DNA from: Methanobacteriota archaeon
GTDB taxonomy: Archaea; Thermoplasmatota; Thermoplasmata; RBG-16-68-12
Assembly (NCBI GenBank): GCA_005878615.1
Contig: VBLT01000105.1
Location: forward strand, 3,414 to 67,413
Length of the DNA stretch: 64,000 nucleotides
Reading direction: 5' to 3'
Translations under genes and position numbers: made by a program
Shown here: positions 1,075 through 46,611 of the stretch, piece after piece
How the letters are laid out: each line of letters starts with the position of its first letter
Numbering within the stretch: the first letter of the stretch is position 1
The notes under the pieces: model-generated
What the model saw: only the letters and a program-made list of their open reading frames with translations
Databases searched by the model: none
Told to the model about the DNA's origin: nothing

Positions 1075-1416
1075 TCAGACATGCCGTCGAAGGACGACGC
1101 TGATCACGCGTCGATAGAACGGCAGGCCGACGACGCAGCCGATGGTCGAGAGGACGGATCCGAGGCCGAGGGCGAACGAAGGCGGAAGGTACCGGAGGAA
1201 GTAACCCGCGGATCCGGCGATGCCCAGGAGCCAGAGGCCGAGGATGGCGAACAAGGACGGCCTCAGGGCGAGCATACCAACTAGGAGGGCGGACAGGAAG
1301 GCGGCGAGATAGCCGAGCGCTTCCCCCGGCAAATGAAGGACGAGTCCTCCCCATGCGAGGAACGGGATCTCCATCGCTCCGATCAGGACCAATCCGAGCT
1401 TCCATTTCCAACGCAC
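1075..1416 (-). CDS. hypothetical membrane protein (3-4 predicted TM helices)
   Basis: 113 aa, strongly hydrophobic (LGLVLIGAMEIPFLAWGGLVL..., LLGIAGSAGYFL). No recognisable family. Confidence 0.4.
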   Translation of the reverse strand: MRWKWKLGLVLIGAMEIPFLAWGGLVLHLPGEALGYLAAFLSALLVGMLALRPSLFAILGLWLLGIAGSAGYFLRYLPPSFALGLGSVLSTIGCVVGLPFYRRVISVVLRRHV

Positions 1417-1425
1417 GACACCGCC

Positions 1426-2196
1426 TCACTGCCGGTAGTCTTCTGGTCGAAAGCCCAGGTCGACCTGGATGTCCCGCAAGCGGCCCAGGTTCGTGCCGTC
1501 GAGCAGATGGATCGCGGCGTCGTCGACCCGGACGATGTCCTTTTCGAACAAGGGCCCGAGGAACCGCGCGCGAATGTCGTTGACGGGCATCCCTCCGCAG
1601 AGCTCGTTGAAGGCCGGCACGACGATCGCCTCTTTCGGCAGCTTCGGATATCGCTTGTGCTTCCGCAGGAAAGGGACGCGCATCCAACACGGCACGATTT
1701 GACGATGCCCCATCGCGTCCCGGAACGCGGCCGCGGGATGGTTGTGGCCCATCACGAGCACCTTCGATTCCATGACCTTCTTGTACGGCCACGCATGTCC
1801 GTGACAGAATCCGGCGTCATCGAGTCGGAACCCGTACGCGGGCTTGAACCGAACGTTACGCGGCACGATGTGCTTCAACTGGCCGTCGTGGTTCCCTTGG
1901 GCGATGTAGATTTCCTTGAAGACGGCCCCGAGGTCTCGGAAGAACACGTACACATCGCGTCGTTCGCGCGACGCCATCTTCGGGACGAGGTGCTTGACAT
2001 CGCCGAGGACGATGAGTCGGCTCGCACCGCGTCGGTCGGCGATCTCCGCGAGCTTTCGCCCCATGCCCTCCGCGCGGCTCGGGATGCGGATGCCTTTCTC
2101 CTGCAATTCCTCTTCGAGGCCGATGTGGAGGTCGGCCACGACGAGGGCGTCGTCCGCCATGAGCACCGGTTCATCGGGCACCGGTTCGAGTTCCAC
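1426..2196 (-). CDS. metallophosphoesterase (calcineurin-like phosphoesterase)
   Basis: 256 aa with metallophosphatase motifs: D-L-H-I-G, G-D-V-K-H, G-N-H-D, G-H-N-H, GHxH-like C-terminal signature. Confidence 0.7.
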   Translation of the reverse strand: MELEPVPDEPVLMADDALVVADLHIGLEEELQEKGIRIPSRAEGMGRKLAEIADRRGASRLIVLGDVKHLVPKMASRERRDVYVFFRDLGAVFKEIYIAQGNHDGQLKHIVPRNVRFKPAYGFRLDDAGFCHGHAWPYKKVMESKVLVMGHNHPAAAFRDAMGHRQIVPCWMRVPFLRKHKRYPKLPKEAIVVPAFNELCGGMPVNDIRARFLGPLFEKDIVRVDDAAIHLLDGTNLGRLRDIQVDLGFRPEDYRQ

Positions 2197-2265
2197 GGTG
2201 GCTCGAACGACCGAAGTTCGCTTAATAATTGTGCGACTTCGGCGGACTGCATCGCGCGCGAGCGA

Positions 2266-3702: not shown

Positions 3703-3760
3703 CCGCCGCGGATTCGGCCGTCGCTAGTTAAACGTTGGCCGCGAGGTTAAGAACGGAGGC

Positions 3761-14244: not shown

Positions 14245-15084
14245 TCAGATTAGATACACGATCGTGAAGAGGAAGATCCAGACCACATCGACGAAGTGCC
14301 AGTAGAGCCCCGCGAGTTCGACCGCCTCATGGTTCTCCTTCGTGAATCCTCCCTTGAACGCCTTCCTCGTGACGTACGCCATCGCGAGGACGCCGGCGGT
14401 GACGTGCGAGCCGTGAACGCCGGTCTGGGCATAGAATGTGGGACCGTACAGCGGGTTCACTCCCGACCCGGCAGGCGCGTGGGTGAAGGTGAGTCCCTCT
14501 CCAAAGAAGAGGTGTTGGTACTCGAACGCTTGGATGCTGAGGAAGGTGATGCCGAGGAGCAAGGTCGCGAGGAGGAAGAGCCGGAGTTTCGTCTGGTCGC
14601 CGCGTTCGATGGCGGCCAACGCCTCGACCATGGTCAGGCTGCTACAGATCAGGATGAACGTGTTGAGTCCCGTCAACGGCACGTTGAGGATCTGGTTCGG
14701 GGTCGCCCACGGACCTTGGAACGTCGGAAGGCCGACTGTGGCGGTCCGCAGGCGTAGGGTCCAAGAGGCGCCGATGATGGCGGAGAAGAACATGATCTCC
14801 GTCGCCAACATCAGCCACATGCCGAGTTTGCGGGCGCTCACCCGCGGGAGCCGCGACTCGACGGCCGCCGCAAGCCCATAGAAAGGGCTCGAGGGCCGTT
14901 GCAAGTCCTGATGGATCCAGCCTCCGATGCCGCCCGCGAAAATCACGACGCCGGCGAGGAGGAGCGGGATGCTTCCAGATACGATGCCGACGTACGCGAC
15001 GCCCATCCCGACCGCGATGATGACGGGCCAAGGGCTCCCGTGATGCTCCTCCTCGCCTTCTCCGACGGACTCCGGATGCGCCAT
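14245..15084 (-). CDS. cytochrome c oxidase subunit III
   Basis: Only the C-terminal 279 aa of listed ORF 14245..16275 is credible; start ATG at 15084. Canonical C-terminus ELAGLYWHFVDVVWIFLFTIVYLI and 7-TM pattern. Confidence 0.8.
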   Translation of the reverse strand: MAHPESVGEGEEEHHGSPWPVIIAVGMGVAYVGIVSGSIPLLLAGVVIFAGGIGGWIHQDLQRPSSPFYGLAAAVESRLPRVSARKLGMWLMLATEIMFFSAIIGASWTLRLRTATVGLPTFQGPWATPNQILNVPLTGLNTFILICSSLTMVEALAAIERGDQTKLRLFLLATLLLGITFLSIQAFEYQHLFFGEGLTFTHAPAGSGVNPLYGPTFYAQTGVHGSHVTAGVLAMAYVTRKAFKGGFTKENHEAVELAGLYWHFVDVVWIFLFTIVYLI

Positions 15085-15357
15085 CCGCCCGTTCCGGAGC
15101 CGTGGAACATCCAGGCCGCTATAACATCTTCGTTTGTACGCGCAAGGGGTCGTCAGTTCGGACGGAACACCCACGGATCGTGTGCGAGGGTCAGGAACAA
15201 GTCTCGCGACTTCGACCACTCGATGAGCCAATTCGGCACCGCAATTCGCGGTCCCTCGGGTCGAAATCGCATGGAGACTGCGTTTCCTATGAGGGGGATA
15301 AAAGCATCGACGCTCGTGCTGATTTTTATTCCCAGGACATAGAACGCAGGAGGTCGG

Positions 15358-16281
15358 ATGGTGGAATCCGAGGCGCCCACCGAGCGGAGAAAGACCGCAA
15401 GGAACACCGGAAGCGAACATCCGTTGGTAGGGACCAACGAAACGGCTTATACCCGGCCCTCGGATGGGGAGCCCCTCAGGTTTCTCATGCCGAACATCCA
15501 GCGGATGAAGACGAAGCTCGTGCTCCTGGGGGAGAGCGGAGTCGGGAAGACGTCCCTGGTCCGACGGTTCGTCATGAACGAGTACGAAGACGCCTACCTG
15601 CGTACGGTCGGGACTCGGGTCAGCAAGATCGAACTCGTGGTGCCCCATGGAGCGGATGTGGAGGTCCACATGGACATGTCGATCTTCGACATCATGGGCG
15701 AGAAAGGCTTTCGGGACCTTGTCCGGGAGACCTACTACCACGGTGCACAGGCCCTGATGGCGGTCTGCGACCTGACGCGGAAGGAGAGTTTGGACGCGCT
15801 GGCGGATTGGATTTCCGCGGCCCTGGAGGTGACCGGGGACGTGCCCCTCTATCTCGTCGTCAACAAGAAGGATCTCGAACCGCAGCGGGCGATCTCGGAA
15901 GAGGAGATCCGGCGGGCCGCCGAGGTCCACCGTGCGCCGTATGTCCTGACCTCCGCCCGGACCGGCGAATTCGTCGAGGACGTGTTCAATTCCCTCGCCA
16001 TCGAGATGGTCGATCGCGCGTTCCGGCATGAAGAGGAACGCATGGCACAGCGGAGCGTCCGGGACAAGGTGTTGGTGCTGCTGGAGAAACGGGGATCGAT
16101 CGGCTTGAAGAAGAATCAGTTCTTCGATATCCTGCGCGGTGTGCAGTTCGACGAAATCCAGGCCGAGCTCGATCGGCTCGAACGGGAGGGCCTGGTGACG
16201 ATCCTGTGGTACGGGGCCTCCGATTTCGCCGTCACGATCACCCCGCGCGGCGCGAAAGCCGTCCGGCAGGGTCAAGCGTGA
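15358..16281 (+). CDS. Rab/Ras-like small GTPase with N-terminal extension and C-terminal winged-helix-like domain
   Basis: G1 [11 protein letters not shown] (Rab5-like); switch I T in RTVG; G3 D-I-M-G; G4 NKKD; G5 TSAR. ~85-aa C-terminal domain ([42 protein letters not shown]) looks wHTH-like. TTTTTATT box ~30 nt upstream of ATG 15358 supports that start; alternative start 15487. Confidence 0.7.
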   Translation: [307 protein letters not shown]

Positions 16282-34655: not shown

Positions 34656-36146
34656 ATGGAATCCGCGGCTCACCATAGGCCTTCTTCTCACCATGGCGAT
34701 GGGTTCGTTGGCGTGATCTACGGGGACATCGGGACGACCGCGTTCCGATGTTCGGTCGCGGAAGATGTGGAGCGCAACGAGTTCGTCCAAGTCCAACACG
34801 AGACCTGCGGCATCGTCCTCGGCCGCGTCGACGAGGTCCAGCGAAAGACGGACCTGTCCCTGGATCGGGCCCAAGCCCTCGGGGATGGCGACCCCGTCGA
34901 CGTGGAGGAGCGAGTCTCGGCGCAAATCAGCGTAATCGGATACCGCGACGACCGCGGCCTCCTGCAAGTCCCGAGGACGCCGTTTCGCGCGGGGGAACCC
35001 GTGCGTCGCGCGGAGACGGCCACGATTCAGGACGTCATCGGGCTGACGGAGGACAAGAAGCACGGAGCTTACGTGGGTCTCCTCGCGGGCCACGAAGTGC
35101 CGGTCTACCTGGACATCAATGCGTTGGTCCAGAAACATGTGTCGATCCTGGCGAAGACGGGCGGCGGAAAATCCTACATCGCAGGCGTCATGATCGAGGA
35201 ACTGATGAAGCATCACGTGACCTGCGTCATCCTCGATCCCCACGGCGAGTACGCCTCCCTCCGAGAGAAGGGGAAGGTCGTCCATGGCGCCACTCGGTTT
35301 CGGGTCGAGCCTCATGCGTACGCCGAGATCATCCAAGTCTTTTCCCCGGACACCAAGGTGAATCCGGGGACCCGGCCGTTGAAGTTCACGTTGAGCAACC
35401 TCGATGCGCGGGACATCCTGTCCCTCACCGGCTCGGCCCGAGTCCGGACGCATCTCACGGCGTTGCGAAAAGCCCTCGATCTGCTACGGCAGGCCGCGAA
35501 GGATTACACAATCCAAGATGTCGTCCGAGTGCTCGAGCGGGAGGAGGACCCGCAGAATGCCTCCTTGATCGACGAGCTCGAATACCTGAGCGAGGTCGAG
35601 ATCTTCGCGAAAGAGGGGACGCGGATCGACGAGCTGGTGATCAAGGGAAAGACGACGATCATCAATTTGAAGGGCGTGCCCCCTGACATTCAGGAACTCG
35701 TCGTGAACCGGCTTGCGACCGCGATGTTCGAGTTGCGAAAAGTCGGTCGGATCCCGCCGATGATGCTCGTCGTCGAAGAGGCTCACAACTTCTGCCCCCA
35801 AGTCGGCCAGGTCGCATCGTCGAAGGTGTTTCGAACGCTGGCTTCAGAAGGCCGCAAGTTCGGCCTGGGACTCGTCATCATCACGCAGCGCGCTGCGAAG
35901 GTCGACAAGAACGTGCTCAGCCAGTGCAACACGCAAGTGATTCTGAAGGTCACGAATCCGAATGACCTGAAGGCGATCATCGCCAGTGTGGAAGGCCTTA
36001 CGACATCGATGGCGGAGGAAATTTCCCGCCTCCCGATCGGGGTCGCAATCATGACCGGAGGAGGCCTCGAGATGCCCCTGATGGTAGAAGTGCGTCCGCG
36101 AGAAACGCGACACGGCGGAGAGAGCGTCAAGGTCATCGACGATTGA
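34656..36146 (+). CDS. HerA/FtsK-like P-loop ATPase (DUF87-type)
   Basis: 496 aa. N-terminal beta-barrel-like region; Walker A LAKTGGGKSY; Walker B MMLVVEEAH; C-terminal TQR...VIL arginine-finger-like region. No NurA partner nearby. Confidence 0.7.
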   Translation: MESAAHHRPSSHHGDGFVGVIYGDIGTTAFRCSVAEDVERNEFVQVQHETCGIVLGRVDEVQRKTDLSLDRAQALGDGDPVDVEERVSAQISVIGYRDDRGLLQVPRTPFRAGEPVRRAETATIQDVIGLTEDKKHGAYVGLLAGHEVPVYLDINALVQKHVSILAKTGGGKSYIAGVMIEELMKHHVTCVILDPHGEYASLREKGKVVHGATRFRVEPHAYAEIIQVFSPDTKVNPGTRPLKFTLSNLDARDILSLTGSARVRTHLTALRKALDLLRQAAKDYTIQDVVRVLEREEDPQNASLIDELEYLSEVEIFAKEGTRIDELVIKGKTTIINLKGVPPDIQELVVNRLATAMFELRKVGRIPPMMLVVEEAHNFCPQVGQVASSKVFRTLASEGRKFGLGLVIITQRAAKVDKNVLSQCNTQVILKVTNPNDLKAIIASVEGLTTSMAEEISRLPIGVAIMTGGGLEMPLMVEVRPRETRHGGESVKVIDD

Positions 36147-36228
36147 AAATTCCTCTCGGAATTTCTCGCGGTCGGATCCGTCGCGGAGGGCGTCTCCCGG
36201 AAGCTCGCGCGAGACGCGGTGTGTGCCT

Positions 36229-36300
36229 AATGAATACATAGAATCCATAGTGAGTCAATTAAAAACGTGTTTCTCAAAAGAGATAGCGTCGTGCGAGCGG
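36229..36300. promoter_or_regulatory. AT-rich island (~35% GC) in the intergenic region ahead of the GT-kinase-ABC operon
   Basis: TAATGAATACATAGAATCCATAGTGAGTCAATTAAAAACGTGTTTCTCAAAAGAGATAG within a ~65% GC genome. Contains a CATAG direct repeat and TTAAAAA. Preceded by hairpin AAATTCC-tctc-GGAATTT right after the ATPase stop. Confidence 0.45.
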
Positions 36301-36451
36301 AGTAGTTGGCGAAATCAAATGCTCTGTTTGTACGGAAGGGGACAATGGCGGTCAAAGAAGTGCCTGATGTGGCGGTCTGCAACTCGAGGATCGTCGAGCG
36401 ACCTTGGGACCGGACGTCCAATTCAACAGAAATCCCATCGAGGAATCTAGG

Positions 36452-37741
36452 ATGGTCGAGGCTCGTCACATTCCGGTCACTGCCGATGTCCCGAATGAAG
36501 CCGGGAGCAAGACGGCCTCGAAGGCCCCGGTCCACTCGCGTCGGGCTCCTCGTATCGCCCTCTACTCTGAAGGCATGATGGGCTTCGGTCACATCCGGCG
36601 CAACGCGTCGATTGCCCAAGCACTCCGCCGCTCCGCACTCCAGCCTGCGATCGTCATGATTGCGGAGGCCTGGCAGGCGGGGGCGCTGCTCATGCCCGCG
36701 GGGATTGACTGCGTCACCCTTCCCGCCCTCCGAAAGGAAGCCAACGGGGAATACAATCCACGCTTTCTCCTGGACGTCTCAGACGCGGAACTCATCGCCC
36801 TCCGGACCCAGGTGATCCGGAGTGCCATGGAGGTCTTCGAGCCCGATGTGCTGATCGTGGACTACTTGCCGCTCGGGGTGGCCGGTGAATTGACCTCGAC
36901 CCTCGAACACTTGCGGAGTCGCGGGAACACCCACTGCGTCCTCGGACTTCGAGACGTCCTCTACGATCCGGAGACGGTGCGGCGCTCCTGGGCGAACCCC
37001 GCGAACGTGGAGGCGATCCGAAAATACTACGACGCGGTCTGGATCTATGGCGATCCGACCGTCTTCGACCCGGTTCGAGAGTACGAACTCAACGGTCCGA
37101 TCGCGGCGAAGGCGCGGCATGTCGGTTATCTTGACCAGCGCCCGCGGCTCGAGTTTGCGAAAGCCGAGGCCGAACCGTTTGTCACCAATCTTCCGCAGGG
37201 CCGGATCGTGTTGTGCCTCGTCGGAGGGGGCCACGATGGGGGTGCCCTCGGGGAGGCCTTCCTCCAGGCGACGTTGCCGCCCGATGCCACCGGCATCCTG
37301 GTCGCCGGTCCTTTGATGCCCTGGGAGGAGCGGGAGCGGATTCGCCGGCGTGCGGAGGGAAAGTCCCAGATCCGCGTGCTCGACTTCGTGCACGACCCGA
37401 CCCCGCTAATTGAGCGCGCGGATCGGATCATCGCGATGGGCGGCTACAATACGGTTTGCGAGGCCCTCTCCTTCGAGAAGCACGCCCTCATCGTCCCGCG
37501 CGTGAGCCCGGAACCGGAGCAGTGGATCCGGGCGCAGCGCTTTCGGAACCTCGGGCTGGTCGACGTCCTGCATCCCAGCGAACTCGACGCCCGAAAACTG
37601 ACGGAGTGGCTCGCCCGCGATCTGGGTCCGCCCCCCGCGGGCCGCAGCAAGATTGACTTCGAAGGTTTGACCCGCATCCCGGCGTTGGTCGCCGAGCTGT
37701 TGGCCAGCCCTCCGGTCCACGAGGTACCCCTGGCCCCATGA
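36452..37741 (+). CDS. GT-B fold glycosyltransferase (MGT/GT28-like), paralog 1
   Basis: Glycine-rich N-terminal loop GMMGFGHIRR; C-terminal MGGYNTVCEAL nucleotide-sugar motif. Start uncertain (36404 or 36452). Stop overlaps the next start (ATGA). Confidence 0.7.
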   Translation: MVEARHIPVTADVPNEAGSKTASKAPVHSRRAPRIALYSEGMMGFGHIRRNASIAQALRRSALQPAIVMIAEAWQAGALLMPAGIDCVTLPALRKEANGEYNPRFLLDVSDAELIALRTQVIRSAMEVFEPDVLIVDYLPLGVAGELTSTLEHLRSRGNTHCVLGLRDVLYDPETVRRSWANPANVEAIRKYYDAVWIYGDPTVFDPVREYELNGPIAAKARHVGYLDQRPRLEFAKAEAEPFVTNLPQGRIVLCLVGGGHDGGALGEAFLQATLPPDATGILVAGPLMPWEERERIRRRAEGKSQIRVLDFVHDPTPLIERADRIIAMGGYNTVCEALSFEKHALIVPRVSPEPEQWIRAQRFRNLGLVDVLHPSELDARKLTEWLARDLGPPPAGRSKIDFEGLTRIPALVAELLASPPVHEVPLAP

Positions 37742-39006
37742 CGGATCGCCGCGACGATGGGATGCGCACCTGTCTGATGTATGCCCAGGACAGCAAAGGC
37801 ATGGGACACATCGTCCGGAGTGTGACGATCGCCCGCCACATCCTGGCCGCCTTTCCGAAGACCGTCGCGTACTTGGCGACGGAGTCACCGATCGCGGGCG
37901 ACTTCCCGTTGCCGGATCGATGCGACTACGTCAAGCTCCCGATGCGCCTCTCCCTCAACGGCGGCTTCGCGCCCGATCCGGAGGAACTCGAGGCCCGCGA
38001 CCGCTTTCGGGGCGTCCGATCGCGCATCCTGCAGGAGGTGGCCCTGGGCCTGTCGCCCGATCTCGTCCTCGTCGACCACGAGCCTCTCGGGCGAAAGGGA
38101 GAGTTCCGCGACGGCCTCTTCGCGCTGAAGGAGCAGTCCCCGGAGACGAAGTTCGTCTTCGGACTGCGCGACATCATGGACGGCGTCGAGCGAACGCGGA
38201 CGATGTGGGAGCAACTCGGGGTCTACGATGCCCTCGAAAACCTGTACGATGGGATCGCGGTGTACGGGTCCCGCGATCTGTTCGACGTCGCGAAGGCCTA
38301 TGCGATCCCGCCGTCCGTGCGTCCAAAGCTCCACTACTGCGGCTTCGTGATCCGCGAACCGCCGAGGGGCGACCCCACCGCGATCCGACGGGAGCACCGC
38401 CTCCCCGCGGAAGGGCCTCTGGTCGTCGCGACGGTGGGGGGAGGAAGCGACGGGTTCCCGGTGCTCGATGCCACACTCGACGCGGTCGCGAAACTGCAGA
38501 AGGAGCGACCGAATCTCAACGCGATCCTGGTAACCGGACCGTTGATGCCCTCGGGCTTTCAGGATCGCTTGAGGGCGAGGGCACCGCGGAGGTGCCGGGT
38601 CATCTCGCGCGCGGACAACTTTCAACTCATGGCAGCGGCCGACGCGATCGTCAGCATGGGGGGCTACAACAGCGTCTGCGAGGCCCTATCTCTCGGTCGA
38701 CCCCTCGTGATCGTACCGCGGGCCACGCACAAGATCGAGCAGCAGATTCGAGCGGAGACGCTCGCGGCGCGCGGGCTCGCCCAATGGGTCCACCCGAAGG
38801 AACTGGACGGGGCACGTCTCGCCGAGGCCCTCCGGTGGGCCTTGGCCCGCGATCCGGACGCTCACGGGCGGCTCGTCCGTTCGTTGATTCCATCGTTCGA
38901 CGGGGCGGCCCGTCTCACGGAGTATCTCGCCCGGTGGCTTCGGCCTCTCGAAGACCGGGAACGTACGCCGCTCGAGATCCCGCCGCTCGCGGAGGGTTCC
39001 GCATGA
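37738..39006 (+). CDS. GT-B fold glycosyltransferase (MGT/GT28-like), paralog 2
   Basis: SKGMGHIVRS N-loop; MGGYNSVCEAL motif. Clearly paralogous to the preceding gene. ATGA overlap at both ends. Confidence 0.75.
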   Translation: MTDRRDDGMRTCLMYAQDSKGMGHIVRSVTIARHILAAFPKTVAYLATESPIAGDFPLPDRCDYVKLPMRLSLNGGFAPDPEELEARDRFRGVRSRILQEVALGLSPDLVLVDHEPLGRKGEFRDGLFALKEQSPETKFVFGLRDIMDGVERTRTMWEQLGVYDALENLYDGIAVYGSRDLFDVAKAYAIPPSVRPKLHYCGFVIREPPRGDPTAIRREHRLPAEGPLVVATVGGGSDGFPVLDATLDAVAKLQKERPNLNAILVTGPLMPSGFQDRLRARAPRRCRVISRADNFQLMAAADAIVSMGGYNSVCEALSLGRPLVIVPRATHKIEQQIRAETLAARGLAQWVHPKELDGARLAEALRWALARDPDAHGRLVRSLIPSFDGAARLTEYLARWLRPLEDRERTPLEIPPLAEGSA

Positions 39007-39983
39007 CCCCGGCCCCGATTGCTCTGGCGCCCGACGAGACTGAGGCGGTCCTCGCGGGAGCCCTCCACGAATTGGAAGGGTACGACGCGAAGCTCGAGAC
39101 CTGGACCTCGGATACGCAGTTCACGGAATACGGCAAGCGGAGGGTCGTGCGCTTCGACCTCCAAGCCGAGGTGGGTGGGATCCCGCAGCATCGACGTTAC
39201 CAGTGGCTGGGGAAATTCTACGATCGAGACGAAGACGCCCGTCGGGTCGCGGCGGTCCTTCAACAGGTCGCGTCCTCGGACGGTGGGAAAAAGGCCGGCG
39301 TGGCCGTCCCGAGCGTCCTCGGATATCACGCGCGGCGGCGCCTCCTGTTGCTGACGTACGAGCCGGGGGAGGCCGTCACGTACGCGCTGGCCAGGGACCG
39401 CGAGGCGATCCTGACCGCGATCGGACGCACCTTGGCGACGCTGCATGGGCTGCCGATCGCCCCGAACCGAATCCACTCTCCGAACTTGGTCCTCGAAGAC
39501 CTTCGGCCGAGGGTGGGGGACCTTTGCCGGCGGTTCCCGACCGAGGCGAAGTCGTTACGGAGCGCTTTGCGGGCCCTCGAGCGCGATGCGGCCTCGGTCG
39601 CGTCCCCGACGTTCGTGCACGGCGACTTCGGCCCGGCGAATCTCCTATGGAGGGACGGACGCATCGTCGTCTTGGATTTCGACAAGTGCGCTCGAGGAGA
39701 TCCCGCCTTCGACCTTGGAAACCTGTTCGCGCAATTGTTTCGGATGTCGATCAAGAAACCGAAGAATATCCCCGACCTCGCGATCGCCTTGACCACGGTC
39801 CTCGATGCCTACCGACGTTCGTCCCGACCAGACCCTGAGTTGGAAGCCCGGGTCGCCTGGTACGAGCGGGCGACGCTCCTCCGTAAGATTCACGGCCTCA
39901 TCTTCAGCAAAAACCGATCGCAAGAGCCGGAGGCGGTCCAACAACGGCACACGGAAGCCGTCCAACTGTTGAGGTTGGCATAG
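39003..39983 (+). CDS. APH/ChoK/Kdo-kinase-like phosphotransferase, paralog 1
   Basis: 326 aa. Brenner motif FVHGDFGPANLL; metal-binding VLDFD. In frame within listed ORF 37920..39983; ATG at 39003 overlaps the GT2 stop. Confidence 0.7.
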   Translation: MTPAPIALAPDETEAVLAGALHELEGYDAKLETWTSDTQFTEYGKRRVVRFDLQAEVGGIPQHRRYQWLGKFYDRDEDARRVAAVLQQVASSDGGKKAGVAVPSVLGYHARRRLLLLTYEPGEAVTYALARDREAILTAIGRTLATLHGLPIAPNRIHSPNLVLEDLRPRVGDLCRRFPTEAKSLRSALRALERDAASVASPTFVHGDFGPANLLWRDGRIVVLDFDKCARGDPAFDLGNLFAQLFRMSIKKPKNIPDLAIALTTVLDAYRRSSRPDPELEARVAWYERATLLRKIHGLIFSKNRSQEPEAVQQRHTEAVQLLRLA

Positions 39984-39985
39984 TC

Positions 39986-41473
39986 GTGGACGAAAGCGAT
40001 TCGGTTCGGTCCGCAGCGGCCGGGATGGGCCCCCGGTCAACGAGCCCTGGCGCCGATCCCACCCTTTCCAGTCCGCCGCGCATTCGGGCCGACTCGGACG
40101 GCTATCCCATCGACTCCGCGTTCCCGGAATTGCCCGTCGCCACGGATTGCGGTCAGATGCTCGGGGTGTTCCGCGAGCACCTGGAGCCTCTCGCGGGGAA
40201 GGCGATCGAGATCCGTTCCTGCCGGCCGTTCCGCTTCCGATGCCACCAGTCCGACTCCCGGTCCGTGCTCCAGTACACCCTGCACGTCGCGGACCGAGCG
40301 ACCGGACGTGAGTGGGACCAGTGGGTCACCGGGCTCCTGTACGCGGAGAACGCCAAGGCGGAGCAGCTCTGGAAGGAACTCCAAGACGAGGACCCCTCCG
40401 GCGAAATCCCGGAGCGCTGGCGCTCGTTTCGACCGATCGCCTTCGTCCCTGACCTTCGGATGATCGTGGAGGTGTTCCCGTACGATCGAAAACTCCGGAA
40501 CCTGCGGCGCGTCATGGGCATGGAGAGGGGCCTCCTCGAGTCTGTCGCGCGGGAGCGGCTCGGCCCCGGGTCCTGGTATCTCGACTTCCCGACGATCCGG
40601 CCGACGCGATATCGGACCGAGCTGGGGGCCACACTCCGGTACACGGTCCGGGCCCGCGAATTGAAATCAAATCGGCTGGAAACCGTCCGGCTTTATCTCA
40701 AAGTCTATCGGGAGCGAAATCAACGCGGCGCGGAGACGTTCCAAACGCTCCGCGCGATTCGAGACAAGGTGAGGCGCTCGCCGGCCGCCTATGCGGTCGT
40801 GGAGCCGATCGCCTATCTGAAGGACGTCCGGACCCTGATCCTCGCCGAGGCCCCGGGGCAGTCCTTGACGCACTTCCTCCGACGCGTCTCCGATCCGGCC
40901 GACGCCATGCGACGCGTGGCGAGGGCGCTCGCGGAGTTCAACCAAGACGACCTGCCGTTCTCCCGAAGTCTATCGCTGGCCGACCGCCTCAGCCTGGTTC
41001 GCCGATCCTCCGACCTGCTTGAGTGGGCTTGCCCCGAACGGAAGGCGACCGTCCAATCGCTTGCCGAGAAGGTCCTCCGAGAATCGGAGGAGGTGCCCTC
41101 CTCCCCTATCCACGGAGACATGAAGCCCGACCACGTCTTCCTGGACGACGACTCCATCACGTTCATCGATTTCGACTCGATCGTCCTCGGCGATCCGCTC
41201 TACGACCCGTCCCATTTGTTCGCCTACCTTGTCGGCGGAGCTCGTACCGAGTCCTATCGGAAGTCGGTCGAGGGCCGAGCCGCGGAGACGTTCGTCAAGG
41301 AGTATTTCCGGCTCGTGCCGGCCGCCTGGGAGCCCCGCTTCCCGATCGCTGCGGCCGGAGCACTCCTCGAGGTCGGCTGCAGCATCTTCCGAAGGCACGA
41401 GCCCGGCTGGCGCGAGCAGCTCCGTCGGGTCGTCGGATATGGCGAGGAGGTCCTCTCCGAAGGAGGCCTGTGA
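39986..41473 (+). CDS. APH/ePK-like phosphotransferase, paralog 2 (longer N-terminal region)
   Basis: IHGDMKPDHVF catalytic loop (HRDLKPEN-like, with N replaced by H); FIDFD metal-binding motif. GTG start 2 nt after the previous stop. Confidence 0.65.
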   Translation: MDESDSVRSAAAGMGPRSTSPGADPTLSSPPRIRADSDGYPIDSAFPELPVATDCGQMLGVFREHLEPLAGKAIEIRSCRPFRFRCHQSDSRSVLQYTLHVADRATGREWDQWVTGLLYAENAKAEQLWKELQDEDPSGEIPERWRSFRPIAFVPDLRMIVEVFPYDRKLRNLRRVMGMERGLLESVARERLGPGSWYLDFPTIRPTRYRTELGATLRYTVRARELKSNRLETVRLYLKVYRERNQRGAETFQTLRAIRDKVRRSPAAYAVVEPIAYLKDVRTLILAEAPGQSLTHFLRRVSDPADAMRRVARALAEFNQDDLPFSRSLSLADRLSLVRRSSDLLEWACPERKATVQSLAEKVLRESEEVPSSPIHGDMKPDHVFLDDDSITFIDFDSIVLGDPLYDPSHLFAYLVGGARTESYRKSVEGRAAETFVKEYFRLVPAAWEPRFPIAAAGALLEVGCSIFRRHEPGWREQLRRVVGYGEEVLSEGGL

Positions 41474-41476
41474 TCG

Positions 41477-42616
41477 ATGGAGCCGAACTTCGAGCTTCCG
41501 GACGATATCTCCCCCACCGGGCCATGGCGATCCGCCCCGCCGATGACGGACGATCCCGCGCTGCCCGCGTTGGAGATCCTCCGGGACACGGGTCTCGCGG
41601 ACGCCTTCCCGGAGCTGCGTCTCGGGGACATACCACCGGACCTCCGTCTCTGCAACTATGTCCCGGGGTCCCGTGCGACGTTTGAAATTCGGGCGGGGGA
41701 CCGCCGGTTCGCGGTCAAGATGTACGTGGACGATCCGAGCTCTGAAGTTCAGTTGTATCGGAAGTTGGCCCGCCTCGGGCTCTCGAAAGATTTCGGGGCT
41801 CGGGCGCCGCGCCTGCTGGCATGGGATCCCGAGCTCAAGATGATCGTCACCAGCTGGCTCGACGGGCCCACGGTGGCCCACTTGGTCAAGGAAGGGCACG
41901 GGGCCCGCGGGGGGACGCTCGCGGCCCAGTGGCTCTGGCATGCGACGAGGCGCCGGGTCAGGTTGGGTCCTCCCCGAGGGCGAACCCACGCGCTCTATCA
42001 GGCGGGCCTCGCCGCTGGCGCCCTGAGCGCAGTCGATTCGAATCTCGGCGCCGCCGCCAAAGCGGTGGCCAAAGTCCTCGTCCAGACAAAGATCCGGGAG
42101 CAATCGCCGAACTTGGTCCACGGCACGCTGTATGCTCGTCACATCTTCGACCTCGGCGACGGTCCTGGGGTCATTGATTGGCAGCAATTCGGGCAGGGCC
42201 CCGTCGAAGTCGATGCGGGGATGTTCCTCGCCACGATTTCTCGAATCGGTCTGCGCCAAGAATCCGTGGCTCGGGAGGCGACGCGGGCGAAGGAGGTGTT
42301 CCTCGAAAAGACCGAACACCTGTTGGACCTGCACGCCTTGTCCTGGTATTGGGCGGCGGGCCTCCTCCATCGGGCCGCGAGCGGCTTGAGGACCGGGAGG
42401 AAAGAGAAGCCGTCTGCGGATGCGGAGGCGCTCGTCGAAGAAGCGGCGGCACACGCCCGGGCGGCGGAAAGGGATCGTTCGGGCGACGCGAAGGAGCCAC
42501 GAGCCTCCCTCGTGCGAATCCGTTCCCTGTTCCACCGGACGGTCGCGCTAGACCCGGCAAACCCAGGGGACGTCGTGTCACCCGCGCCCGAAAGCAGCGG
42601 GGATCGGAGGGACTAA
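41477..42616 (+). CDS. APH-like kinase-fold protein with degenerate catalytic loop (predicted pseudokinase)
   Basis: VHGTLYARHIF in place of HGDxxxxN (catalytic Asp replaced by Thr); VIDWQQF in place of DFD. Overall length and layout parallel paralogs 1 and 2. Confidence 0.55.
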   Translation: MEPNFELPDDISPTGPWRSAPPMTDDPALPALEILRDTGLADAFPELRLGDIPPDLRLCNYVPGSRATFEIRAGDRRFAVKMYVDDPSSEVQLYRKLARLGLSKDFGARAPRLLAWDPELKMIVTSWLDGPTVAHLVKEGHGARGGTLAAQWLWHATRRRVRLGPPRGRTHALYQAGLAAGALSAVDSNLGAAAKAVAKVLVQTKIREQSPNLVHGTLYARHIFDLGDGPGVIDWQQFGQGPVEVDAGMFLATISRIGLRQESVAREATRAKEVFLEKTEHLLDLHALSWYWAAGLLHRAASGLRTGRKEKPSADAEALVEEAAAHARAAERDRSGDAKEPRASLVRIRSLFHRTVALDPANPGDVVSPAPESSGDRRD

Positions 42617-44680
42617 GTGGAGCCGACGGTGGCGAAGTTCGAGGGCGCGGCCGAGCCCGCGGTCGCCGTCGGACGCAGCGCGACGAAGGTCAAGCGCATC
42701 CTCCAGTCCGCCGGGCTCGGATTGGTCGTGCAGCACTGGATTGCCCTCGAGACCCGGGCGATCCCCTCCCTGTTCATCCTCATTGCCCAAGCATTTCCCT
42801 CCTTGGCGTTCCTGGTTTCGTTCCTTTCCGATCGGATCCGCTTCTATTGGCTGCTCATCGTCTTCCTCGTCGTGTATCTTCTTTGGAGGACCCGGAAGCA
42901 TCAGTTGGAGCCGAAGCAGAAGGCCACCCTTCGCCGGATCCTGTCCTACCTGAAACCGCACTGGCCGTACGTGGCAGCGCTCTCGACCGCCATCGTCGCC
43001 GCCGCGGCCCTCGACTTGGCCCAGCCGTGGATCATCGCGATTCTCCTGGTCGGCGAGGTGCTCCTGAAATCCAATCTAGGGTTCCTGCCGCTCGTCGTCG
43101 GCCTGCTCGTGGGCACTTTCGTCGTCAAGGAGATCGCCTCGTTCTTCAAGGACTACCTGTCGGAGGTCCTCAGCCAGAAGACGGTTCATCGACTCCGAAC
43201 CGACCTGTACCAGACCGTCGAGCTCCTCCCGGTGACCTACCTCGATTCGTCCCGGACGGGGGAGATGATCTCCCGGGTCGTCAGCGACACGAACGAGGTC
43301 GAGAAGGTCCTGAGCGACGACATGGCGAACTTGATCTCGAACGCGGTCACCGTGTCGGGGGCGATCGTCCTCCTATTCGTCGTCGACTTCAACCTCGCCC
43401 TTTTCGTGGCGCCGTTCGCGGCCGTCATGGTCATCGTCGTGAACTTGTTCAAGAAGCGAATCAAGCAGGCCTCCCGGAGGATCCGCGAGGCGGTCGCGGA
43501 ATTGACGGCCAAGGCGTTCGAGGTCGTCTCCGGCCTGCGGATTGTGAAGAGTTTCGTGATGGAGCACCACGAGGCGAACGCCTTCCGCGAACGTTCCTTC
43601 GCCATCTCCAAGGCTCGGGTGCGCCTCGCTCGTCTGGCGGGCGCCTACGGTTCGACGGTGGACTTCCTCACCCTCTGCGCCCTCGTGGCCGTCGTCTGGG
43701 TCGGCGCGCCCGCCGTCGTCTCCCGCGGGCTGAGTTTGGCGGCGTTCATCGCCTTCCTGAGCTACATGGACAAGATGTTCAAACCGCTCGTCCTGCTGAG
43801 CAAGGTCAATCTCACCTTCCAAAAGGTGAGCGCGGCGGGCGACAGGATATTCGAACTGATGGACTCGGAGGTCGAGGTCCTGGAAACGCCGGACGCCTTG
43901 GTCCCGACGACCACGGAGGGCCGGATCGAGTTCGATCACGTGACGTTCGGGTACCGCCCGAATCACAACGTCCTCGAGGACTTCTCCCTCGTCATCGAGC
44001 CGGGCGAGACGGTCGCGGTCGTCGGGTCGAGCGGCACCGGGAAATCGACCGTCGTCAACCTCCTCCTCCGGTTCTACCAGCCGGCCTCCGGTCGAATCCT
44101 GATCGACGACTATCCGGTGGACCGGCTGAATCTGAAAAGCCTCCGCGGCATGATCGGTCTCGTGCTCCAGGAGCCGGTCCTGTTCTCCGGCACGATCCGG
44201 GAGAATATCCTCTATGGGGATCCGGAGGCCTCGGACGAGGACGTCGTGCGGGCCGCTCGACTCGCGAATGCGCACGACTTCATCGCGGGTTTGCCCAAAA
44301 GTTACGAGACCGAAATCGGCGAGCGCGGCGTAACCCTGTCCGTGGGGCAGCGGCAGCGGATTGCGATCGCCCGCGCGCTCCTCAAGGACCCGAAGATTCT
44401 GATCCTTGACGAGGCGACCTCGAACATCGACTCCGAGTCCGAGTCCCTGATCCAGGACGCCCTACGACGATTGACGGGGCAGAGGACGATGATCGTGATC
44501 GGTCACCGCCTCTCCTCGATCATGGATGCGGACCGGATTGTCGTCCTCGAGGATGGGGGCATCGCCGAGGTGGGAACCCACGAGGACCTGCTCGGCAAGA
44601 GGGGCGTGTACAGTCGCCTGTATGAAGCCCAGATCGCGCGTGGGACGTCCGACGGGGAGACTCGCGACGAGTTGCTCTAA
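42617..44680 (+). CDS. ABC exporter, fused TMD-NBD (MsbA/type I exporter-like) with extra N-terminal membrane segment
   Basis: Walker A GSSGTGKST; Q-loop; signature LSVGQRQR; Walker B ILILDEAT; H-loop IGHRL. Six-helix TMD plus ~100-aa N-terminal hydrophobic extension. GTG start abuts the upstream stop. Confidence 0.85.
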   Translation: MEPTVAKFEGAAEPAVAVGRSATKVKRILQSAGLGLVVQHWIALETRAIPSLFILIAQAFPSLAFLVSFLSDRIRFYWLLIVFLVVYLLWRTRKHQLEPKQKATLRRILSYLKPHWPYVAALSTAIVAAAALDLAQPWIIAILLVGEVLLKSNLGFLPLVVGLLVGTFVVKEIASFFKDYLSEVLSQKTVHRLRTDLYQTVELLPVTYLDSSRTGEMISRVVSDTNEVEKVLSDDMANLISNAVTVSGAIVLLFVVDFNLALFVAPFAAVMVIVVNLFKKRIKQASRRIREAVAELTAKAFEVVSGLRIVKSFVMEHHEANAFRERSFAISKARVRLARLAGAYGSTVDFLTLCALVAVVWVGAPAVVSRGLSLAAFIAFLSYMDKMFKPLVLLSKVNLTFQKVSAAGDRIFELMDSEVEVLETPDALVPTTTEGRIEFDHVTFGYRPNHNVLEDFSLVIEPGETVAVVGSSGTGKSTVVNLLLRFYQPASGRILIDDYPVDRLNLKSLRGMIGLVLQEPVLFSGTIRENILYGDPEASDEDVVRAARLANAHDFIAGLPKSYETEIGERGVTLSVGQRQRIAIARALLKDPKILILDEATSNIDSESESLIQDALRRLTGQRTMIVIGHRLSSIMDADRIVVLEDGGIAEVGTHEDLLGKRGVYSRLYEAQIARGTSDGETRDELL

Positions 44681-45095
44681 CCGCAGGACTGAACAACCGT
44701 GTCCCAGGGGAGAGACAATTTCGTACACCGATTCGCGCGAATTCGACAGCCGTCAAAACACAACGGTGACACATGTGGCCCCAGTTGTGGCCAAACCGAT
44801 TGCACCTGACAGCGCCCCGGCGACGAGGCCTTGATACGCCCCAGTCCGTACGGTTCGGGAATCCGTGCGGGGGAAGGCGGTGACAACGCCCGGAGGCGGA
44901 GAACCAGGATCGCCTTGGAAGAGGCAGACGCCACTCCGGCCGCGAGCCCGATGGCGCGGACGGGTCGATCGTCCGCTCCACCCTCCGATGATGAAGACCC
45001 GCGTCGGCTACGGTCCCCAGCAAGCCGCCCGGAGCCGGCGTCACCGTCACCCTCTCGATCCGGAAGGCGAGTTGCTCGAGGAGCTCCGGAAAACG

Positions 45096-46532
45096 ATGGA
45101 GCGCATGAGGGCCCTCGAGAAGCTTAAGCCCGGCATCGATCGAGTGGCCCGGTCGCGGCGAACCCCAAACATAGACGAGACAGGGCCTAAGCGGCCTCCG
45201 CGAAGGGCCCCCCGGGCGCGCCCGTTCCCCGGGAGGAAAGCGACGGCGCTCGTCGTCGTCACTCTCTTCGTCGCAACGGCCGTCGCCCTCGTGCTGTACA
45301 ATTCCCCAACGGAGACCCCGATCCAAGTCAATCCGCCTCGGTGGAAAGACGAGACCGCGACCCACTTTACCTTCGCGGCGGCCGGCGATTTCGGGGGACC
45401 CGAGAGCGTCGATTCGATTGCCCTCATGCAGCGCGCTCGGACGGCCGGCATGTCCTTCGTCCTCGCCCTCGGAGACCTGGGGTACACGACGGACGAGGCG
45501 GGATGGTGCCATCAGCTGAGGCGTTACGTGCCGGAACTCGTCATCATCGCGGGGAACCACGACGACGGAGAGGGCGACGGAGGCAACCTTTCCCACTACA
45601 TCGCGAACTGCCCCTATCCTTGGTCCTCCGGGCCCGTCGCGGGAAATGGGACGCCGGGCTACGGATACGAGTACTATTTCGATTACCCCGCGGCCAAACC
45701 ACTGGCGCGGTTCATCATGCTAGCGGCGGGCCTCGAAGGCGCGATCAATTACAACTACGGCGAGGACTCGCCCCACACCGAGTGGTTCGAAGGGGCGGTC
45801 CAGGACGCGCGGCAGCACGGTATTCCCTGGGTGATCGTCGGGGCGCACCGACAGTGCGTCACGGTCGGCAAGAAGGACCGCTGCTCGATGGGCCAAACGA
45901 TTTTCGATGAGATCGTGGAGGCGAAGGTGGACTTGGTCCTGACGGGACACGATCACGTGTATGAACGGAGCAATCTGCTCGCTCGATCGGCCCGATGTCG
46001 GTCGGTGAACACCACGGACAATGTCGACCTGTCCTGCGTCGTCGGGAACGGGCGGCATGGGCGGTATCCTGCGGGCAATGGGACCGTCGTTGTCGTACAA
46101 GGCGTCGGCGGGAACGAGATCGACAATGTCACGATTGACGGAAGCGATCCCGAGATCGGTTACATCGCCGAGGCGATGGGCGGAAATGCGAACACGAGAT
46201 CGGGGGCGCCCGGGTTTGGATCGGTCTTCTACACCGTTGACGCCCGGTCGATCCGGGCCGTAACCAACTTCTGCCCACCCGGAGAGGTCGGGGCGGATGG
46301 ACAATGCACCGTCAACCCGACGACCGTCTTCTCGGACCAATTTTCCATTGCGAATTCGACCAACCCGCCGGCCCCGACGGACCTCTCCTCGTCGGCCATG
46401 CCCGAGTTCGGCGGGGCATTCGTGGCTCCTCACATGACCGAAGCCGCCATGCTAGTCGTCGCCGTGGAAATTCCCGTCCTCCTACTCTCTTGGCTTGGAG
46501 CCCGAGGTTCCCGCGGGAGCCGGCCTCGTTAG
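45096..46532 (+). CDS. membrane-anchored extracellular metallophosphoesterase (purple-acid-phosphatase-like)
   Basis: N-terminal TM (ATALVVVTLFVATAVALVLY). Metallophosphatase motifs GDFG, GDLGY, GNHD, GHDH. At least 6 N-glycosylation sequons. C-terminal PEF + hydrophobic helix + Arg-rich tail. Start uncertain (44988/45096/45102). Confidence 0.65.
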   Translation: MERMRALEKLKPGIDRVARSRRTPNIDETGPKRPPRRAPRARPFPGRKATALVVVTLFVATAVALVLYNSPTETPIQVNPPRWKDETATHFTFAAAGDFGGPESVDSIALMQRARTAGMSFVLALGDLGYTTDEAGWCHQLRRYVPELVIIAGNHDDGEGDGGNLSHYIANCPYPWSSGPVAGNGTPGYGYEYYFDYPAAKPLARFIMLAAGLEGAINYNYGEDSPHTEWFEGAVQDARQHGIPWVIVGAHRQCVTVGKKDRCSMGQTIFDEIVEAKVDLVLTGHDHVYERSNLLARSARCRSVNTTDNVDLSCVVGNGRHGRYPAGNGTVVVVQGVGGNEIDNVTIDGSDPEIGYIAEAMGGNANTRSGAPGFGSVFYTVDARSIRAVTNFCPPGEVGADGQCTVNPTTVFSDQFSIANSTNPPAPTDLSSSAMPEFGGAFVAPHMTEAAMLVVAVEIPVLLLSWLGARGSRGSRPR

Positions 46533-46611
46533 TCGCTTCGATGGAGGGTCGCCTGAATCCTTCCCCCGGGAAGGGGAAAGGTTTTCGGCCGATTCGTCGA
46601 ATACCCAGCCC

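Follow-up and report, generated by a model that had tools for sequence, protein, structure and literature searches.

A set of six tightly coupled genes, encoding two glycosyltransferases (GT1 and GT2), three kinase-fold proteins (K3, K4 and K5) and an ATP-binding cassette (ABC) exporter, was identified at positions 36452-44680 of a 64,000-nucleotide stretch of archaeal DNA (contig VBLT01000105.1, positions 3,414 to 67,413 of the forward strand; hereafter the window). Judging from sequence comparisons, the core GT2-K3-K4-K5-ABC set, to which GT1 is an optional addition, is a horizontally acquired cassette circulating among soil bacteria and archaea. We favour, at somewhat less than even confidence, the interpretation that its enzymes glycosylate one defined acceptor from a UDP-hexose and phosphorylate it, and that the ABC protein then exports the product. 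An earlier, sequence-only reading had described the individual genes accurately, but neither its framing of the system as archaeal nor the association it drew with an upstream HerA-like ATPase withstood comparison with other genomes. No description of the cassette was found in the literature, only analogies, and hundreds of metagenomic homologues carry no functional annotation beyond generic family names. As far as is known, the combination of families, the conserved pseudokinase, the K3-K4 fusions, the spread between domains within one habitat and the linked ectophosphatase appear to be new; the protein superfamilies themselves are ordinary.

Organization, distribution and insertion of the cassette

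The close coupling of six co-oriented genes, proposed in the sequence-only reading, was confirmed by an open reading frame (ORF) scan and direct translation. GT1 (36452-37741) and GT2 (37738-39006) share an ATGA overlap, as do GT2 and K3 (39003-39983); K4 (39986-41473) begins with a GTG codon after a 2-nt gap, K5 (41477-42616) follows after 3 nt, and the ABC gene (42617-44680) has a GTG start directly after the TAA of K5, all on the forward strand. The same boundaries occur in public gene calls on six identical metagenome contigs. Pfam searches returned the predicted families, namely Glyco_tran_28_C for the glycosyltransferases (GTs), PF01636 (APH) for the kinases, ABC_membrane with ABC_tran for the exporter, and DUF87 for the HerA-like ATPase on the left flank. 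The suggestion that both enzyme classes had recently duplicated in tandem was not upheld, since the copies are ancient paralogues: K3 and K4 are 27% identical over 186 aa, GT1 and GT2 are 31% identical, and the similarity of K5 to either of the other kinases is barely detectable (E about 0.01). A scan for internal promoters and terminators of the cassette found none, but it was of the bacterial type and tells little about an archaeon.

Scanning one genome per GTDB species with GT2 recovered archaeal copies, 60-69% identical, in ‘Methanobacteriota’ EA_13 and EA_22 and in metagenome-assembled genomes (MAGs) of Thermoplasmata and Bathyarchaeota, together with bacterial copies in Gemmatimonadota, Terriglobales, gp11 Acidobacteria, Verrucomicrobia, Eisenbacteria, Rokubacteria, Chloroflexi, Haliangiales (Myxococcota) and one Betaproteobacteria MAG. 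All hosts are soil MAGs or metagenome contigs. The same orthologous set was present in about 33 of the GT2-anchored loci, as mapped with tblastn, and the gene set as a whole recurs in more than 70 independent loci, hence beyond chance. A second scan, of a metagenome collection, was anchored on K5, the most cassette-specific protein. Upstream sequence of at least 1.6 kb was available for 54 loci, and in 40 of these K4 lay immediately upstream of K5, the remaining 14 being solo K5-like genes in archaeal contexts, some paired with a phosphoesterase; where at least 6.5 kb was available, GT2, K3 and K4 were all present in each of 20 loci and the ABC gene in 19. By both scans, the GT-kinase-ABC block, whose neighbourhood conservation had been put forward as a check, is co-conserved across genomes and its genes are not split.

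Arrangements nonetheless differ between hosts. The order in Gemmatimonadales, where K3 homologues are 50-57% identical to that of the window, is GT1-GT2-APH(x1-3)-ABC-APH(~480 aa)-APH(~365 aa), in some cases with an ATP-grasp unit ahead of GT1. Three loci (L125, L127 and L151) have the order HerA-GT1-K3-K4-K5-GT2-K3-K4-ABC-phosphoesterase, each GT being followed by its own K3-K4 pair. There were also instances of two divergent cassettes in a single MAG, namely L016 and L026 in Thermoplasmata SMAG_U11048, and L019 and L039 in Gemmatimonadetes AG34.

Relative to their bacterial orthologues, the proteins of the window showed identities of 60-75% (GT1), 55-69% (GT2), 43-57% (K3), 44-55% (K4) and 44-63% (K5). 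Such values are far above those usual between vertically inherited archaeal and bacterial orthologues. In neighbour-joining trees of GT2 and K4, an archaeal clade of Thermoplasmata and Bathyarchaeia was sister to a bacterial clade in which phyla are mixed. The system is thus not specifically archaeal, as had been supposed; many soil bacterial phyla also possess it, at 45-75% protein identity, and it has been inserted into this archaeal chromosome. In the same trees, L036, a 3.7-kb contig labelled Chloroflexi (CF_61), was nearly identical to L033, a 118-kb contig of Bathyarchaeota BA_2; the Chloroflexi label is probably a binning error in the public MAG.

The window itself is of archaeal descent, as it also encodes an Rrp4-type exosome subunit, gyrase and CysRS, and nearby a Pno1-type KH protein, a DUF357 protein and a GHMP-family kinase, which adjoins CoaBC and is interpreted as a pantoate kinase. 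Syntenic contigs, all from soil, are labelled Thermoplasmata or Methanobacteriota archaeon in GenBank. One of these, the 467-kb contig L092, shares with the window the order RIO1-KH-PPDK-PrsW-FAA hydrolase-Tmk-HerA on one side and DUF357-GHMP kinase-CoaBC-Mur ligase...gyrA-gyrB on the other, with only 182 bp (L092 11495-11675) between its HerA gene (82% identical) and DUF357. Because HerA is followed directly by DUF357 in L092, and sequence similarity to the window ends at the HerA stop codon, the window carries an insertion of about 10.4 kb (36147-46611, forward strand) between these two genes. The inserted unit extends beyond the cassette, taking in a phosphoesterase gene (44988-46532, forward strand). 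In GC and GC3 content the island genes do not differ from those of the host, which leaves no compositional signature of transfer; the case for horizontal acquisition is accordingly built on the phylogeny and the empty site. Within this archaeal family the site between HerA and DUF357 varies in content, being empty in L092, occupied by the cassette in the window, and occupied by genes for a glyoxalase and a DUF7577 protein (L093 11492-13240) in L093, of which the HerA is 68% identical. No integrase, repeat or tRNA was seen at the island borders.

The HerA-like ATPase (34656-36146, forward strand; DUF87, 126 bits), which scored below the NCBIfam HerA equivalog cut-offs (160 bits against 970 and 122 against 800), had been thought possibly to travel with the cassette. 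It occupies the same position in L092 and L093, neither of which has the cassette there, and is absent beside the cassette of Bathyarchaeia (L033) and of all bacterial loci; moreover, homologues 63-95% identical occur across the Thermoplasmata, Methanomassiliicoccales included. It is therefore a vertically inherited core housekeeping gene that lies outside the module. As to an alternative offered in the same reading, that the ATPase belongs to an unrelated defence-type module, no NurA, nuclease or defence partner is adjacent to it in the window or in syntenic relatives. That HerA and the cassette form one defence-type or secretion-type unit is extremely improbable. In the window and its closest relatives HerA does adjoin the cassette, in the same orientation, and HerA families are known from defence systems, but the empty-site comparison effectively refutes such a unit, HerA is conserved across the whole class and missing from the bacterial and Bathyarchaeia cassettes, and 305 bp containing the island's own AT-rich, promoter-like block separate it from GT1. 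A defence role for the cassette itself was likewise rejected, as PADLOC gave no specific match for any of its proteins; only the ABC protein resembled any model, namely mad3 and mad8 of mads, and this similarity is of the generic ATPase kind.

The AT-rich block noted previously in this intergenic region was verified, with 35.2% GC at 36220-36290 (forward strand) in comparison to 64.5% for the whole window. The sequence ...AATACATAG...CTCA...AAAACGTGTTTCTCAA(A/T)AG upstream of GT1 is conserved in the related loci L010 and L016, and the AT-rich block is absent from the empty site L092. It may serve as a promoter or other regulatory element of the island. An Rfam search for a riboswitch or leader RNA upstream of GT1 returned no match even at E <= 1.

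Glycosyltransferases and kinases

Both GTs had the two-Rossmann-domain GT-B fold, and Glyco_tran_28_C was the best Pfam family for each (GT1 31.9 bits, GT2 46.9 bits, cut-off 22). The MGGYN(T/S)VCEAL motif that had been seen in the two sequences is part of a longer pattern, MGGYN(S/T)VCEAL...PR...EQ..R, invariant across 33 sequences and including a PSPG-like MGGYNS...E...EQ donor motif. Residues G23-H24 and D113, at the G-x-G-H and Asp positions, are invariant in both paralogues and, by alignment position and fold, constitute a putative inverting His/Asp catalytic dyad; the basic residues R27, R94, R144 and K197 of the N-terminal domains are also invariant in both. Fold comparison, for which the GT2 model had a pLDDT of 88, bore out the expected grouping with MGT/OleD/UGT-type enzymes, with MurG close behind, the closest solved structures being OleD, CalG, Gtf, YjiC and UGTs, which are soluble-acceptor enzymes of family GT1. 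Scores were far below the models for the named MGT, Mgt and OleI enzymes (TIGR01426, NF033129 and NF000362; 19.6-29.8 against 260, and 20-22 against 700) and for MurG (TIGR01133; 35.4 bits against 250). GT2, the most conserved protein of the cassette, is best described as its predicted core glycosyltransferase, UGT/MurG-like and inverting, and GT1 is dispensable, being missing in L024, L033, L013/14 and others.

The two GTs differ mainly in the N-terminal, acceptor domain (26% identity, as opposed to 41% in the C-terminal, donor domain), and within GT2 the acceptor domain is conserved to the same extent as the donor domain (68.4% and 68.2%, respectively, across 32 orthologues). Taken together, these two features suggest two successive steps on one defined acceptor, both drawing on one class of donor. 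In Gemmatimonadota, a RimK/LysX-like ATP-grasp domain was found fused to GT1 or directly upstream of it (L007 4573-5640 and eight other loci). Since it is confined to these nine loci the domain is not part of the core chemistry, though it hints at an amino acid being ligated to a carboxylate of the substrate in this phylum.

The three kinases belong to PF01636 both by Pfam gathering score, with K3 at 91.4 bits, K4 at 54.4 (residues 235-427) and K5 at 35.4 where 23.2 is required, and by the marks of the bilobal kinase fold, which carries the Brenner (HxDxxxxN) and DFD motifs; K5 shows the fold signature without the catalytic Asp. K3 retains HGDxxxx(N/Q), DFD and the Lys of GKFY across 26 orthologues, and K4 retains H(G/R)DLKxDH and D(L/F)D, hence both are predicted to be active APH-fold kinases. 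Conservation is high in the N-terminal region of K4 (about 230 aa; 39986-40680), where numerous Cys, Arg, Trp and Pro residues are invariant; the region had no Pfam match, and a profile search against PDB sequences found none either. Many archaeal loci encode K3 and K4 as a single fusion protein, about 810-830 aa in length.

Foldseek comparison of the AlphaFold2 model of K3 (pLDDT 90.8) returned MphH/MPH(2'), APH(3'), LicA, APH(4), choline kinases, PsiK, a 25-hydroxysteroid kinase, TvaE and corramycin kinase, at TM-scores of 0.5-0.65 and identities of 14-21%. On the basis of this model, K3 appears to have a generic small-molecule kinase fold without a close characterised relative. In fold, then, the kinases side with APH, MPH and choline kinases, which act on small molecules, and stand apart from protein kinases and from MTR kinase, in keeping with the original assignment. 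Named resistance kinases were not reached in NCBIfam searches (APH_3p 26.3 against 205, capreomycin Cph 18.3 against 390, and no Mph match), nor was the Kdo/WaaP family PF06293, for which K3 scored 17.5 bits against 21.3 and K4 and K5 gave no match.

K5 has HGT where HGD would be expected and DWQ where DFD would be, and its earlier identification as a pseudokinase was substantiated across the family. All aligned orthologues and paralogues, from bacteria and archaea, have HG(T/S)LYxRH and IDW(Q/E/H/N), the catalytic Asp being replaced by Thr or Ser, and both the ATP-site Lys (K81) and the metal-binding Asp (D234) are invariant. From these residues, K5 would be either a conserved pseudokinase or a non-canonical enzyme. 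A solo K5-like gene of the HGT type was also found in an archaeal context, beside genes for an RFC small subunit and adenylosuccinate synthetase (L103 6247-7434), hence the pseudokinase family exists outside the cassette too.

The best NCBIfam match of K3, and of the K3-K4 fusion, was the class V lanthipeptide kinase LxmK (NF038156), which raised the question of a ribosomally synthesized and post-translationally modified peptide (RiPP): LxmK/TvaE-like kinases and GT1-type GTs would decorate a peptide or protein, to be secreted by the ABC protein. The presence of TvaE among the fold matches and the RimK-like ATP-grasp domain on the Gemmatimonadota GT1 are compatible with this, but the LxmK score of K3, 48.2 bits, is far below the cut-off of 315, the ATP-grasp domain is confined to one bacterial lineage, no LxmX/LxmY partner or precursor gene is present at the locus, and no lyase, cyclase or peptidase domain occurs. 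In the window, and in the bacterial and other loci with gene calls examined, the abutting or overlapping genes leave no space in which a precursor could be encoded. Upstream in the window there is a single small ORF, of 34 codons (MAVKEVPDVAVCNSRIVERPWDRTSNSTEIPSRN; 36346-36450), which ends 1 nt before the GT1 start and was considered as a precursor peptide gene; it is not conserved in L010, L016 or L024, and so is probably no gene. We regard peptide modification as very unlikely.

Exporter, phosphoesterase and associated genes

The ABC protein is a type IV-fold exporter half-transporter (ABC_membrane 130.7 bits, ABC_tran 115.3 bits). MsbA_lipidA was the best NCBIfam model for the ABC proteins of both archaeal and bacterial cassettes, with the MsbA equivalog cut-offs not reached (TIGR02203 479.8 bits against 602; PRK11176 399.7 against 867). 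The extra N-terminal membrane segment reported for this protein is real, consisting of two hydrophobic segments (residues 48-72 and 74-92), and is specific to its closest Thermoplasmata relatives. The window protein is 60-78% identical to the ABC proteins of archaeal cassettes, encoded at the 3' end, but only 30-39% identical to those of bacterial cassettes, whose genes sit between K3 and K4.

These features bear on a comparison with the lipopolysaccharide (LPS) inner core that had been drawn for the operon. Similar to the cassette, the inner-core pathway (WaaG of family GT4, WaaC/F of family GT9, WaaP/WaaY/KdkA, MsbA) combines cytoplasmic GTs, protein-kinase-like sugar kinases and an MsbA-like half-transporter, and outgroup cassettes, described below, even add a GT4. 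Unlike it, the cassette has GT1/GT28-like rather than GT9 or GT4 enzymes, lacks lipid A or Kdo machinery and is found in organisms that are not known to have LPS. The comparison therefore holds as an analogy in the logic of GTs, sugar kinases and an MsbA-like transporter, and fails as to family membership, given the PF06293 and MsbA scores. A corresponding lipid route, in which MurG/MGD-like GTs would glycosylate an inner-leaflet lipid, WaaP/WaaY-like kinases would phosphorylate it and the MsbA-like protein would flip it to the surface, is quite improbable. It accords with Glyco_tran_28_C and MsbA_lipidA as the best-matching families, with the invariant basic residues of the GT N-terminal domains, and with outgroup loci in which two kinases and an ABC gene accompany a GT4, the family to which CAZy assigns WaaG, one of these loci lying near a GT9-like gene. 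However, the same 60-75% identical GTs would have to serve ester-linked bacterial and ether-linked archaeal lipids, and the hosts include Thermoplasmata, Bathyarchaeia and Chloroflexota, which are not known to have LPS. No lipid-synthesis or Lpt-type gene was present, the top fold matches of the GTs act on soluble acceptors, and a CBM9-like outer-membrane barrel encoded next to bacterial copies suggests a soluble glycan over a lipid.

The phosphoesterase gene downstream encodes a membrane-anchored protein of 514 aa with a Metallophos score of 40.2 bits (against 21.5), of which all PDB sequence matches were purple acid phosphatases (PAPs; E 1e-5 to 5e-4). Its basic N-terminus and transmembrane helix, together with a C-terminal transmembrane helix, imply that the catalytic domain should face outward. 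The gene follows the ABC gene in the window, L010, L089/90, L091, L094/95, L125 and L151, and in every close relative with enough downstream sequence, and is absent from the empty site L092; in this archaeal lineage it probably belongs to the island as an accessory gene. A paralogous pair was also found, in which a K5-like gene is followed after 16 nt by a gene for a second Metallophos/PAP-like membrane protein (L108 8983-10101 and 10117-12027; also L102, L110 and L111), and in relatives of the window's organism such a pair lies between HhH-GPD and MR_MLE genes. No copy of this pair occurs in the window. Its existence elsewhere ties the pseudokinase family to the phosphatase family.

Many archaeal cassettes include a GalU-like NTP_transferase gene (TIGR01099 179 bits, below cut-off), placed ahead of GT2 in some and separating K5 from the ABC gene in others, which points to a UDP-hexose donor. 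The same gene permits another interpretation, in which APH-fold anomeric or 6-kinases salvage sugars on the donor side and feed the uridylyltransferase, so that unusual UDP-sugars reach GT1 and GT2 and the phosphate does not appear in the product. This is compatible with APH/maltokinase-fold enzymes including genuine sugar kinases, with the bacterial K3 motif HGDLxxxQ (Gln replacing Asn), which may resemble that of maltokinase, and with the K3-K4 pair that follows each GT in L125 and L151. There is also precedent in Actinobacteria, where a GlcN kinase of the APH/maltokinase fold is clustered with a GT1-family GT, a GalU-type enzyme (UDP-glucose pyrophosphorylase) and a phosphoglucomutase (PGM), and a sugar activation and transfer route was proposed (bioRxiv 10.1101/482810). 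That operon differs from the cassette in its single kinase, its SIS and PGM genes, its lack of an ABC exporter or pseudokinase, and its confinement to Actinobacteria, within larger gene clusters; no close sequence relationship between the two was detected. Donor-side salvage is nonetheless unlikely, as neither the window nor any bacterial cassette has the GalU-like gene, and a mutase or isomerase is lacking as well. Three to five kinases would be more than one or two GTs need, neither maltokinase, NahK nor AmgK was among the sequence or fold matches listed, and the linkage of pseudokinase and ectophosphatase is left unexplained.

Other neighbours are found beside bacterial copies. In 10 bacterial loci the gene directly upstream of the cassette encodes a DUF5916 protein, which has a signal peptide, resembles CBM9 in its N-terminal region and ends in the C-terminus of an outer-membrane barrel (...SYLIRF). 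Several bacterial loci have, downstream of the cassette and convergent with it, a gene for a BlaR1-like M56 membrane protease, and the Bathyarchaeia copy has an M48/M56 protease gene near it. Five Gemmatimonadota loci have otsA-otsB-GH15 nearby, on different sides; as these trehalose genes are absent in other phyla and in archaea, they are a lead and not evidence. When neighbouring ORFs were clustered, none of the conserved ones proved to be a regulator of the TetR or MerR type.

Homologues of GT2 at 32-39% identity, from Deltaproteobacteria, Cyanobacteria, Chloroflexi, Proteobacteria and Acidobacteria, are nearly always followed by a GT4 gene. About 10 of these outgroup loci have the order GT28C-like - GT4 - heparinase II/III-like - APH(~500 aa) - APH(~440 aa) - (GT28C-like, polysaccharide deacetylase) - ABC, and the APH proteins include an extension like the N-terminal region of K4 and, in one kinase, a weak EcKL Pfam match. 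That a GT, two kinases and an ABC protein occur together here too indicates that the association is old; its ancestral setting looks glycan- or glycoconjugate-like. Loci of this type (L067 9929-21095 and L068 9977-21095; also L056, L058, L061, L069, L072, L077 and L080) were observed in Zoogloeaceae, Methylococcales, Acidobacteria and Binatia, and as far as found are also uncharacterised.

Proposed function and the case for detoxification

In the interpretation that we favour, GT2 and, where present, GT1 would transfer hexose from UDP-hexose to a defined acceptor in the cytoplasm, in two successive, different steps, and K3 and K4 would phosphorylate the resulting glycoside, probably in a complex scaffolded by K5, which is predicted to be catalytically dead whilst retaining its ATP site. 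A homodimer of the ABC protein would then move the anionic product across the membrane, from where, in diderm bacteria, the adjacent CBM9/DUF5916 outer-membrane barrel may take it further. In the Thermoplasmata lineage, the surface-anchored PAP-like enzyme would trim phosphates outside the cell. The K3-K4 fusions, and the presence of the K5 pseudokinase in every orthologue examined, are counted as signs of functional coupling. Also in favour are the donor motif and His/Asp positions of the GTs and the GalU-like gene of archaeal cassettes, which speak for UDP-hexose, the glycan-type setting of the outgroup loci, the exporter-type fold of the ABC protein and the linkage to the phosphoesterase. 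Because the cassette contains no scaffold-building enzymes, the acceptor would have to be a common metabolite or lipid.

Several observations weigh against this interpretation. No gene for building an acceptor is part of the cassette, the GalU-like gene is missing from the window and from bacterial cassettes, and the phosphoesterase, 307 bp from the ABC gene, is restricted to one archaeal lineage. The DUF5916, M56 and trehalose neighbours come mainly from Gemmatimonadota and could reflect lineage synteny, and certain phylum labels, being derived from MAG binning, could be incorrect. Copy numbers vary, with 1-2 GTs, 3-6 kinases and the duplicated sets of L125, L127 and L151, and such variation, together with the occurrence of two cassettes per genome, is more typical of detoxification families than of fixed pathways. 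Lastly, the structural neighbours of both enzyme classes mostly modify xenobiotics or natural products, and fit detoxification equally well.

An alternative is that the cassette performs conjugative detoxification and efflux: the GTs would glucosylate an exogenous soil toxin or antibiotic, the kinases would phosphorylate the toxin or its glucoside, and the ABC protein would expel the conjugate. We consider this possible but doubtful. Amongst the closest structures are the kinases MphH, MPH(2'), APH(3') and APH(4) and those acting on capreomycin and corramycin, and for the GTs the OleD, CalG, Gtf, YjiC and UGT enzymes; the cassette has spread across domains and phyla in one habitat and is patchy among close relatives; its kinase number varies, some genomes have two copies, scaffold-biosynthesis genes are lacking, and BlaR1-like M56 and M48/M56 proteases are neighbours. 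On the other hand, a GT2 acceptor domain conserved to the level of the donor domain across hosts is unusual for broad-range detoxifying GTs, the conserved pseudokinase and K3-K4 fusions suggest an assembly-line complex, and the outgroup loci are of glycan type. Neither a dedicated GalU-like gene nor an ectophosphatase would be expected, no TetR/MerR-type regulator was seen among conserved neighbours, and PADLOC and the NCBIfam resistance models gave no match above cut-off.

Detoxification of this kind would make the cassette a prokaryotic counterpart either of macrolide inactivation by MGT and MPH or of the animal UGT, EcKL and ABC route. Macrolide inactivation and self-resistance (MGT/OleD/OleI, MPH(2'), OleB/C-type ABC export, extracellular reactivation by OleR) draw on the same superfamilies of GT1-type inverting GT-B enzymes and APH-fold kinases, with an ABC exporter in the same unit, and the extracellular hydrolase of the archaeal islands could likewise undo the modification. 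The cassette differs in being 14-21% identical to the solved enzymes, far below the MGT and Mgt/OleI cut-offs and without a match to any Mph model, in its three to five fused or overlapping kinases, the conserved pseudokinase included, in its highly conserved acceptor domain, in the lack of an antibiotic gene cluster, and in having archaeal hosts too. In insects, glucosylation followed by phosphorylation is a documented route of detoxification, which counts in favour of this alternative, and the animal phase II/III system (UGT, EcKL, ABC) has the same three steps and the same three superfamilies; these are dispersed eukaryotic gene families without an operon, and serve as an analogy only (PMC10859841, PMC8225905).

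The phosphorylated glycoside of the favoured interpretation may also be compared with prodrugs. Schemes in which a compound is phosphorylated, exported and dephosphorylated include streptomycin 6-phosphate (StrA kinase, StrK extracellular phosphatase) and amicoumacin (AmiN/AmiO). The cassette resembles these in that its island combines a cytoplasmic kinase of the APH fold with an exporter and with a phosphatase predicted to lie at the cell surface or beyond it, and differs in that it has no biosynthetic core and that its predicted PAP-like phosphatase occurs in one archaeal lineage only. It is conceivable, though we place only limited confidence in it, that the cassette is a mobile inter-domain pathway for small, secreted, phosphorylated glycosides of a new class, possibly masked in the manner of a prodrug and unmasked by the ectophosphatase, or else a prokaryotic phase II/III module. 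The former would involve a kinase-pseudokinase complex without a characterised counterpart; the latter would be the first operon-encoded prokaryotic module for glucosylation, phosphorylation and efflux.

Were a secreted phosphoglycoside to be produced, it would be a metabolite tied to one habitat and widespread among its uncultured soil lineages (Gemmatimonadota, Acidobacteriota, Thermoplasmata and Bathyarchaeia), and the cassette a clean case of recent whole-pathway transfer between bacteria and archaea. Conjugation and efflux would instead represent a new, transferable mechanism of resistance or detoxification in the soil resistome, working in both domains. The conserved APH-fold pseudokinase and the K3-K4 fusions offer a tractable model of a prokaryotic kinase-pseudokinase partnership, and with only 6-7 genes the unit is small enough for expression and assay, though no new protein fold or genetic principle is revealed.

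Two further ORFs of the window, outside the cassette, are of note. An 805-aa ORF (1333-3750, forward strand) had no Pfam family at E <= 1e-5, and a 676-aa ORF (14245-16275, reverse strand) comprises DUF7541 and a C-terminal cytochrome c oxidase subunit III (COX3) domain, being either an unusually long COX3-containing protein or an over-extended ORF call.

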